Source: a virus (taxonomy: Duplodnaviria; Heunggongvirae; Uroviricota; Caudoviricetes). Taken from it: a stretch of 8,031 nucleotides of DNA. Positions 4,495 through 5,841 of this stretch are shown one piece after another (the first letter of the stretch is position 1; each line of letters starts with the position of its first letter). The stretch lies in IMG/VR virus record IMGVR_UViG_2526164690_000036; one strand, given 5' to 3'. The notes below the pieces were generated by a model. That model made no database searches, was not told where the DNA came from, and was given only the letters and a program-made list of their open reading frames with translations. A program made the translations under genes and the position numbers.

Positions 4495-4503
4495 CGCATA
4501 GCT
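4495..4503. repeat. 9-bp target site duplication (left), CGCATAGCT
   Basis: Identical to 5833-5841, immediately flanking the IS10 termini. Resembles the IS10 hotspot consensus NGCTNAGCN. Confidence 0.9.
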
Positions 4504-4516
4504 CTGAGAGATCCCC

Positions 4517-5725
4517 TCATAATTTCCCCAAAACGTAACCATGTGTGAATAGATTTTGAGTAAGCAGGGTTGCAGCCACGAGTGAGTCTTCCCTTGTTAT
4601 TGTGTAGCCAGAATGCCGCAAAACTTCCATGCCTAAGCGAACTGTTGAGAGTACGTTTCGATTTCTGACTGTGTTAGCCTGGAAGTGCTTGTCCCAACCT
4701 TGTTTCTGAGCATGAACGCCCGCAAGCCAACATGTTAGTTGAAGCATCAGGGCGATTAGCAGCATGATATCAAAACGCTCTGAGCTGCTCGTTCGGCTAT
4801 GGCGTAGGCCTAGTCCGTAGGCAGGACTTTTCAAGTCTCGGAAGGTTTCTTCAATCTGCATTCGCTTCGAATAGATATTAACAAGTTGTTTGGGTGTTCG
4901 AATTTCAACAGGTAAGTTAGTTGCTAGAATCCATGGCTCCTTTGCCGACGCTGAGTAGATTTTAGGTGACGGGTGGTGACAATGAGTCCGTGTCGAGCGC
5001 TGATTTTTTCGGCCTTTAGAGCGAGATTTATACAATAGAATTTGGCATGAGATTGGATTGCTTTTAGTCAGCCTCTTATAGCCTAAAGTCTTTGAGTGAC
5101 TAGATGACATATCATGTAAGTTGCTGATAGGTTTCCAGTTTTCCGCTCCTAGGTCTGCATATTGTACTTTTCCTCTTACTCGACTTAACCAGTACCAACC
5201 CAGCTTCTCAACGGATTTATACCATGGCACTTTAAAGCCAGCATCACTGACAATGAGCGGTGTGGTGTTACTCGGTAGAATGCTCGCAAGGTCGGCTAGA
5301 AATTGGTCATGAGCTTTCTTTGAACATTGCTCTGAAAGCGGGAACGCTTTCTCATAAAGAGTAACAGAACGACCGTGTAGTGCGACTGAAGCTCGCAATA
5401 CCATAAGCCGTTTTTGCTCACGGATATCAGACCAGTCAACAAGTACAATGGGCATCGTATTGCCCGAACAGATAAAGCTAGCATGCCAACGGTATACAGC
5501 GAGTCGCTCTTTGTGGAGGTGACGATTACCTAACAATCGGTCGATTCGTTTGATGTTATGTTTTGTTCTCGCTTTGGTTGGCAGGTTACGGCCAAGTTCG
5601 GTAAGAGTGAGAGTTTTACAGTCAAGTAAGGCGTGGCAAGCCAACGTTAAGCTGTTGAGTCGTTTTAAGTGTAATTCGGGGCAGAATTGGTAAAGAGAGT
5701 CGTGTAAAATATCGAGTTCGCACAT
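4517..5725 (-). CDS. IS10 transposase (402 aa, IS4 family, DDE)
   Basis: Full-length ORF MCELDILHDSLYQFCPELHLKRLNSLTLACHALLDCKTLTLTELGRNLPTKARTKHNIKRIDRLL... recognised as the IS10/Tn10 transposase. Confidence 0.95.
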   Translation of the reverse strand: MCELDILHDSLYQFCPELHLKRLNSLTLACHALLDCKTLTLTELGRNLPTKARTKHNIKRIDRLLGNRHLHKERLAVYRWHASFICSGNTMPIVLVDWSDIREQKRLMVLRASVALHGRSVTLYEKAFPLSEQCSKKAHDQFLADLASILPSNTTPLIVSDAGFKVPWYKSVEKLGWYWLSRVRGKVQYADLGAENWKPISNLHDMSSSHSKTLGYKRLTKSNPISCQILLYKSRSKGRKNQRSTRTHCHHPSPKIYSASAKEPWILATNLPVEIRTPKQLVNIYSKRMQIEETFRDLKSPAYGLGLRHSRTSSSERFDIMLLIALMLQLTCWLAGVHAQKQGWDKHFQANTVRNRNVLSTVRLGMEVLRHSGYTITREDSLVAATLLTQNLFTHGYVLGKL

Positions 5726-5786
5726 TTTGTTGTCTGATTATTGATTTTTGGCGAAACCATTTGATCATATGACAAGATGTGTATCT
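5718..5786 (+). ncRNA. Expected position of the IS10 antisense RNA-OUT (pOUT transcript), approximate coordinates
   Basis: Placed from established IS10 biology (RNA-OUT of ~69 nt starts just inside the transposase start and runs toward the outside end). The 5' and 3' ends were not determined from the sequence itself. Confidence 0.4.
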
Positions 5787-5832
5787 ACCTTAACTTAATG
5801 ATTTTGATAAAAATCATTAGGGGATTCATCAG

Positions 5833-5841
5833 CGCATAGCT
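5833..5841. repeat. 9-bp target site duplication (right), CGCATAGCT
   Basis: Exact copy of 4495-4503. Confidence 0.9.

Follow-up and report, generated by a model that had tools for sequence, protein, structure and literature searches.

We analysed an 8,031-nucleotide stretch of viral DNA (IMG/VR record IMGVR_UViG_2526164690_000036, Caudoviricetes; the whole stretch is hereafter called the window), which belongs to a lambdoid prophage and carries a complete copy of the insertion sequence (IS) IS10. We have hardly any doubt that this copy is a simple insertion of a single 1329-bp element into the prophage, accompanied by a 9-bp duplication of its target. The target lies in a short block that recurs in many phages and that probably comprises the late promoter pR', a Q-binding element (QBE), a pause element, the transcribed leader and the terminator tR', with a CPBP-family protease gene as a moron between the antiterminator gene Q and pR'. 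According to this assignment, IS10 would enter the transcribed leader ~23–36 nt past the predicted start and would split the late-promoter leader from tR'. An earlier note on the same DNA had taken the interrupted feature to be the tail of the CPBP gene. The main gains over it are the reading of that feature as the leader and terminator of the late promoter, the identification of the element as the IS10-Left allele, a second, inverted copy of the IS10-Right allele, and a palindrome that follows the subtype of Q.

An IS10-Left element within a nine-base-pair duplication

Direct reading of the window and a script both bore out what the earlier note had described, a complete 1329-bp IS10 between identical 9-bp repeats. 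The repeat CGCATAGCT occurs at 4495–4503 and 5833–5841 and nowhere else on either strand, and the identity ends exactly at its edges, with not one further base shared on either side. By chance, a given 9-mer would be expected again at the position required with a probability of 4^-9, or ~4e-6. The element has its inside end, CTGAGAGATCCCC, on the left (4504) and its outside end, read in reverse complement as CTGATGAATCCCC, on the right (5832), the inverted repeats being imperfect. Length, terminal repeats, the 402-residue DDE open reading frame (ORF), the 9-bp duplication and the antisense RNA-OUT all agree with the IS10 family. The transposase is identical to WP_001352368.1, the protein found both in a genome with the occupied site and in plasmid R100. 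The 3' end of RNA-OUT has been placed at IS10 nucleotide 47 (PMC5006887), which corresponds to ~5786 in window numbering. The fit to the IS10 hotspot consensus claimed earlier stands in part: the target agrees with NGCTNAGCN (as quoted in PMC10044804), a preference and not a requirement, at five of the six specified positions (GCA-T-AGC), and CACACAGCT, a common variant of the target site in other phages, agrees at four.

All 1329 nucleotides are identical to the Tn10 arm on the gltS/jemA side in plasmid R100, whereas the tetD-side arm differs at 15 positions; the two arms of Tn10 in R100 differ from one another by 15 nucleotides and 4 amino acids. Because the published gene order, IS10L ... 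tetR-tetA-tetC-tetD-IS10R (PMC6737455), puts tetD beside IS10R, the gltS/jemA-side arm is IS10-Left, and the window copy carries the same allele. It shares with the IS10-Left of Tn10 the terminal repeats, the 402-residue transposase, RNA-OUT and the 9-bp duplication, with a target resembling GCTNAGC, but it stands alone in a prophage, while the arms of Tn10 flank the tet genes. From IS10-Right, the arm supplying active transposase, it differs by the same 15 nucleotides and 4 residues. IS10-Left is reported to be inactive or very weakly active and IS10-Right to be the functional copy (PMC11148124, PMC10044804, PMC5006887). Transposition of the window copy by its own enzyme, as the earlier note had it, is therefore uncertain. 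An IS10 transposase clearly acted on the ends of the element, and this enzyme may have come from another copy. We conclude that a single IS10 was placed by transposase-mediated cut-and-paste, with CGCATAGCT duplicated in the process.

The comparison with empty sites that had been proposed as a check was run with a reconstructed 160-nt probe on 5426 complete Escherichia coli genomes. At a coverage threshold of at least 80%, the probe matched 566 genomes, among them O157:H7 and O103 strains, and in 548 of the 566 the identity was 99% or higher. In strain 2013C-4538 (NZ_CP027582), for example, the flanks are contiguous around a single CGCATAGCT. The findings that the earlier note had named as refuting its claim were thus not made, and the comparison shows a simple insertion of the 1329-bp unit. 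The occupied site was found in only two of the 5426 genomes, those of the O111:H11 strains 88.0502 and 88-19539. Positions 423–8031 of the window align with strain 88.0502 with zero substitutions and two single-base gaps. The junction of the occupied site was not found in IMG/VR. The two O111:H11 genomes with the occupied site (NZ_CP077567.1 and NZ_CP077491.1) each contain at least 40 places matching IS10, against a median of one among genomes with any match, which indicates a large expansion of IS10 in this lineage.

A conserved cassette interrupted by the element

In its uninterrupted form the cassette, counted from a −35-like hexamer up to and including the T-run, measures ~83 bp (Table 1). 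It comprises the hexamer TTTACG (4447–4452), the palindrome TACGTACGTA (4449–4458) as a candidate Q-binding element, an A-tract (4459–4463) and TATGCTG (4469–4475), the last of which would be either a −10 element or a sigma-dependent pause element (SDPE). The aligned leader core reads TGTTAAGAGTGGTTAyTTCGCCACACAGCTTAAACCCGCC-loop-GGCGGGTTTTT, and the IS10 target corresponds to core positions 22–30. The hairpin has a CCCGC/GCGGG stem of five GC pairs and a 6-nt loop. The hairpin and T6 run reported previously at 5846–5867 are in place, while the distance from the CPBP stop codon TGA (4364–4366), given as ~150 bp, is corrected to 141 nt in the restored sequence. Two promoter registers are possible. 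In register A, TATGCT would be the −10 element, with +1 near 4481; in register B, the A-tract hexamer at 4457–4462 would be the −10 element, with +1 near 4466–4468 and TATGCTG as the pause element, which is the geometry of phage 21. With either register, IS10 starts (at 4504) after the putative promoter, the palindrome and the pause-like element and before the terminator. The element lies ~30–55 bp downstream of the putative pR' and moves the terminator 1338 bp further off.

The cassette is not peculiar to this prophage. Matches obtained by searching phage genomes with the reconstructed empty site start at window positions 4447–4474 and run through the 9-mer and the hairpin. Phages lacking the CPBP gene carry the cassette as well, namely a Stx2a phage, phiP27, mEp460, ev243, PhiR26_1 and K-12 DLP12, together with at least 110 IMG/VR contigs. 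In the Stx2a phage Stx2_EH2201 the block starts 38 nt past the stop of a 126-residue Q gene and is followed by a TrmB-like ORF, a methylase gene, three tRNA genes and stx2AB. In mEp460 a small ORF and a reverse-oriented gene come between Q and the unit, beyond which are methylase and holin genes. In ev243, PhiR26_1 and K-12 DLP12 a reverse-oriented porin moron stands between Q and the unit, and the holin-lysozyme-Rz genes come ~120–175 nt after the unit. An exact-match scan of IMG/VR with the first 15 nt of the core gave at least 120 loci. We retained 114 true units, made up of the IMG/VR loci listed, loci fetched earlier and the window, so that at least 114 contigs carry the unit; nearly all units among the matches listed are without a CPBP gene. 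The 7-mer ending at core position 2 is [T/C]AnnnTG in all 114 units and TAnnnTG in 102 of them. The phage 21 pause element TAAGCTG itself occurs in two IMG/VR units, and TATGCTG of the window matches it at six of seven positions.

The upstream half of the unit is linked to Q. A Q21-family ORF stands upstream on the same strand in 91 of the 114 units, the distance from the Q stop to the core being 3–44 nt in some and 0.6–3 kb in others. The palindrome in the spacer upstream of the A/T-tract varies between phages, the subtype palindromes including TACGTACGTA, GCGTACGC, GCGGTCCGC and GGAATTCC. Clustering of the 47 distinct Q proteins at 60% identity gave four clusters, in one-to-one correspondence with four palindrome families: TAC(G/A)(T/A)(A/T)CGTA and GTTATAAC; (G/A)CGGnCCGC; GCGTACGC; and GGAATTCC. 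Palindrome family and Q cluster were concordant at 91 of 91 loci. Phages of the same Q cluster with different morons have nothing in common directly after the Q stop, yet all of them carry the unit, and the module just past the terminator is shuffled among the Q clusters. At the downstream end, per-sequence folding, which replaced RNAalifold for this count, gave a hairpin followed by at least four T in 111 of the 114 units. Several of the stems are wholly different (CCGCCA/TGGTGG, CCTCGC/GCGGGG and TCCTACC/GGTGGGG), and therefore structure, not sequence, is conserved at the terminator.

Known late-control systems have a comparable layout. In the curated GenBank record of phage 21, a −35 element TTGACA, a QBE (ATTGAGCA and AATGAGCA) in the spacer, a −10 element and the start site come straight after Q21; the pause element TAAGCTG occupies +2 to +8, the terminator ends ~50 nt past the start, and tRNA and lysis genes follow. 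The window has its candidate elements in the same order and at the same size, with a Q21-family Q upstream, a TAnnnTG element, a terminator within ~50–60 nt, and tRNA and lysis genes thereafter (tRNAs, a nanS-p-like esterase gene, holin, lysozyme and Rz). It differs in having a Q that is no more than a distant relative of Q21 (82 residues matched to the Q21 structures 6p18/6jnx with E 1e-7), a 0.8-kb moron that parts Q from the cassette, and weak promoter hexamers. The pR'-tR' region of Stx phages, which gives rise to StxS, is likewise a constitutive late promoter terminated at once, upstream of tRNA and late genes, with a short RNA in lysogens (PMC7547250). The Q family there is another one and the leader unrelated, and StxS is a 258-nt RNA processed to 74 nt, while the leader in the window is predicted to be ~50–62 nt long. 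DLP12 (quuD - nmpC - essD) has a Q of the same cluster as the window, the palindrome TACGTACGTA, TATGCTG, the hairpin, and a moron after Q, with the unit 175 nt upstream of essD. The DLP12 moron is a reverse-oriented porin gene with IS5 instead of CPBP, and the DLP12 unit is uninterrupted.

From the arrangement of these parts we infer promoter activity, a start site and binding of Q to the palindrome, and several points weigh against the assignment. A consensus promoter scan (threshold 9/12) called no promoter at 4447–4474, where the −35 and −10 candidates are both weak, the sequence allows both registers, and the −35 element of register B would lie outside the conserved block. The QBE of phage 21 consists of two direct 8-bp repeats, whereas the element in the window is a palindrome of 8–10 bp, so that Q may bind differently. 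The concordance between Q and palindrome could partly reflect co-inheritance, with the core as a recombination point, and not selection. The tR' hairpin is minimal (five GC pairs), with a fold z of only −1.2 to −1.6 alone and a competing hairpin, and RNAalifold on a MAFFT alignment of 26 distinct terminator variants returned no pairs, most likely due to MAFFT misaligning loops of variable length. Finally, a published RpoE-related start of the DLP12 lysis operon (−121 primer, PMC7918800 Table S1) lies ~350 nt upstream of the unit. This start was tried as an anchor for pR' and rejected as a different promoter. It maps to ~5375 of the K-12 locus examined, where the accompanying reverse primer had no match, and its transcripts would have to pass the terminator of the unit to reach essD. 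The literature was also searched for start sites or 3' ends mapped upstream of essD, with no relevant result.

Table 1. Features of the window and the basis on which each was assigned
Feature	Position	Strand	Basis or remark
3' end of second IS10, IS10-Right allele, cut by the window edge	1..422	+	inside end at 422
Antiterminator Q, Q21 family (QuuD-like), intact	3027..3398	+	Pfam PF06530, E 8.7e-52; WP_000090264.1
CPBP (Rce1-like) intramembrane protease, moron between Q and predicted pR'	3550..4366	+	Pfam PF02517
Predicted late promoter pR' region	4447..4475	+	conserved block common to phages without CPBP
Proximal part of nearly invariant, predicted transcribed leader core, TGTTAAGAGTGGTTA...	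4474..4503	+	alignment and IMG/VR scan
Left copy of target-site duplication, CGCATAGCT	4495..4503	.	present once at empty sites
Complete IS10, IS10-Left allele of Tn10 (RefSeq annotation ISVsa5-family)	4504..5832	-	1329 bp, terminal inverted repeats
IS10 transposase ORF, intact, 402 aa, DDE	4517..5725	-	ORF list; Pfam DDE_Tnp_1, E 1.5e-24
RNA-OUT antisense RNA of IS10	5718..5787	+	Rfam RF00240, 97.3 bits (gathering score 41), E 6e-20
Right copy of target-site duplication, CGCATAGCT	5833..5841	.	
Distal leader and intrinsic terminator, putative tR'	5842..5867	+	terminator scan; stem 5846-5861, T6 5862-5867
Second, stronger intrinsic terminator downstream of putative tR'	6174..6199	+	7-bp stem and T6; fold z -2.4

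Ownership of the terminator and predicted late transcription

The CPBP gene contains T7 runs at 3692–3698 and 4012–4018 where all relatives have T8, that is, two single-T deletions. As given, the gene stops after ~50 codons. Adding one T to each run restores an ORF of 272 residues, the length at which the protein is intact in reference genomes, and IMG/VR contigs carrying the same unit have the longer spacing. The two homopolymer losses suggest sequencing error, although real pseudogenisation could also account for them. The hairpin had been taken as the terminator of CPBP. It would indeed be the first terminator met by a CPBP transcript, a terminator scan having found no other plus-strand candidate between the CPBP stop and 5846–5867. 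It is not specific to CPBP, being present with its unit in phages without that gene.

The older view could be kept if pR' lay directly downstream of Q, at 3399–3549. CPBP would then be the first gene, or a moron, of the late transcript, the hairpin would be CPBP's own terminator, and IS10 would sit in the CPBP 3' untranslated region. Several promoter-like hexamer pairs at 3459–3531 in the AT-rich spacer between Q and CPBP, the position of pR' straight after Q in phage 21 and in a Stx2a phage, and the lack of any plus-strand terminator-like site from the CPBP stop to the hairpin, so that CPBP transcripts would end there, are in keeping with this. We nevertheless consider it improbable, since the hairpin with ~55 bp upstream of it recurs where CPBP is missing, in several named phages and at least 110 contigs of phages, and since phages of one Q cluster share nothing just after the Q stop but all share the unit. 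The unit, moreover, holds both the palindrome specific to the Q subtype and an SDPE-like TAnnnTG, and DLP12-like phages place a reverse-oriented porin gene between Q and the unit, which there stands directly before the holin gene. We therefore prefer a pR' within the cassette, past the CPBP moron and ~1.05 kb downstream of Q, instead of the adjoining Q and pR' assumed before.

With pR' in the cassette, the earlier note is right that IS10 separates the late promoter from the tRNA and late genes, late transcription running antisense to the transposase gene. In the general model, transcription from the constitutive pR' is stopped at tR' in lysogens, giving a short RNA (PMC7547250), and Q, loaded at the QBE and the pause element, makes polymerase termination-deficient (Yin et al.). 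Without Q, transcripts from the late promoter would run past the former stop at ~50–60 nt into the inside end of IS10, antisense to the transposase gene. This read-in would end at Rho, at the RNA-OUT 3' end (~5786) or at tR'; the terminator scan found no plus-strand terminator-like site inside IS10. The normal short leader RNA would be lost, and the late genes would probably still be protected, because the RNA-OUT 3' end and then tR' follow the read-in. With Q, loading should persist, and the termination-resistant complex should transcribe across IS10, pass tR' and reach the tRNA and late genes. Strong polarity on Q-antiterminated transcription, which had been suggested, is in our analysis unlikely, because the putative QBE and pause element are intact upstream of the element and Q-loaded polymerase is termination-deficient. 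At its outside end, the pOUT promoter of IS10 aims at tR', 14 bp away, and read-through from it should stop before the TrmB-like and AraC-type genes downstream.

The opposite outcome, in which the insertion abolishes Q-dependent late expression and disables the prophage, would follow if the leader past ~+23/+36 were needed for loading of Q, or if late transcription collided with that of the transposase. The ~45 nt from the pause-like element to the hairpin are almost invariant across Q subtypes, which suggests that they serve as more than a spacer, and they are cut in two by IS10. In the Q21 system, however, positions −40 to −1 together with the pause element were enough for loading even where the rest of the transcribed sequence was artificial, and the loaded complexes ignore terminators (Yin et al.). 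The 9-bp duplication also keeps the native sequence up to the boundary of the element. Disablement of the prophage is accordingly an outcome that we regard as unlikely.

Second IS10 copy, neighbouring features and significance

The left edge of the window cuts through a further IS10 copy that the earlier note had omitted. Its visible part contains the C-terminal transposase ORF (65–409), is identical at 422 of 422 positions to the tetD-side arm of Tn10, and differs from the copy at 4504–5832 at six positions. The two copies are inverted, and their inside ends face one another across 4081 bp of prophage DNA with hok/sok, DUF968, rusA, Q and CPBP. The visible parts show a Tn10-like arrangement with other cargo, and their orientation and alleles fit Tn10, the outside end of the left copy lying beyond the window edge. 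On its inner side the left copy is flanked by TGCTTAAGA (423–431), which is unlike the duplication at the right copy. Both O111:H11 genomes are without the left copy and have a single TGCTTAAGA, 27 bp upstream of an alpha/beta-hydrolase gene. The exact left-copy junction was not found in complete E. coli genomes, IMG/VR, GTDB genomes or JGI metagenomes.

If the two copies were arms of one Tn10-like composite, or products of a Tn10-promoted rearrangement, the right copy would not be an independent insertion, and the inverted arrangement, the inward-facing inside ends and the combination of one IS10-Right with one IS10-Left allele would be those expected from Tn10. We rejected this origin for the right copy as highly unlikely. 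A single 9-bp duplication around the whole composite is not what the window contains: the right copy is flanked on both sides by its own perfect duplication, which differs from the TGCTTAAGA beside the left copy. The 4081 bp between the copies are, moreover, collinear and in the same orientation with genomes lacking both copies, and in two complete genomes the right copy occurs alone. The right copy's own duplication, the collinear interior and the right-only genomes show that no composite element brought in both copies together, and we retain the independent insertion of a single IS10. Whether the pair now forms a functional Tn10-like composite transposon of ~6.7 kb (1–422 and beyond, together with 4504–5832) is a separate matter, and we give it a very slim chance. 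Its cargo would be the hok/sok module, DUF968, rusA, Q and the CPBP gene, with the cognate late promoter of Q pointing outward through IS10-Left. On moving, such a composite would act as a self-contained Q and pR' that drives termination-resistant transcription into the DNA beyond its insertion, while constitutive pR' transcription antisense through IS10-Left would silence the transposase of that arm. The hok/sok type I toxin-antitoxin module between the copies lies at 832–1006 and ~1001–1156 (Rfam sok, 107 bits), and hokD is annotated in relatives.

Past the cassette, a small TrmB-like ORF (5991–6230; a frameshifted pseudogene in RefSeq), which contains the stronger terminator at 6174–6199, is followed by a gene for an AraC-type regulator of 237 residues (6325–7038) that may be one of the prophage-encoded Psr/PatE regulators known from enterohaemorrhagic E. 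coli (EHEC). A tRNA with a CAT anticodon (7067–7142) is called Met by ARAGORN and tRNA-Ile by RefSeq, the latter corresponding to the ileZ type that precedes stx in Stx phages. In a prophage of the same type in strain NZRM4165 (NZ_CP032791.1), an IS3-family element (locus 3177–4390) stands in the tRNA cluster, where it replaces or splits one tRNA-Arg; it is another IS in the interval between Q and the late genes. A full-length Rfam match to the small RNA family STnc100 (7393–7583, 138 bits) lies in the window after the tRNA cluster and ahead of the nanS-p-like esterase gene, and a stretch with 70% identity occurs just downstream of stx2B in the Stx2a phage (locus 7251–7492). We considered 7393–7583 as a late promoter and rejected it, because the homologue in the Stx2a phage comes after stx2B, and hence after pR'.

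As an event the insertion is routine, being one more IS10 in a lineage with at least 40 IS10-matching places per genome. Its interest would lie in the site, where what is probably a constitutive late promoter under the control of Q has been parted from its terminator by a natural insertion, the Q-loading elements being apparently intact. Strains with the occupied and the empty site (2 and 566 complete genomes, respectively) offer a ready pair for following Q-modified polymerase across 1.3 kb of foreign DNA, and the same pair bears on the role of the leader RNA in lysogens and on promoter read-in at the inside end of IS10. The palindromes linked to Q subtype can be tested as candidate Q-binding sites for four subtypes of the Q21 family, among them QuuD of DLP12 and the Q of some Stx2 phages, and this by-product may be more useful than the insertion itself.

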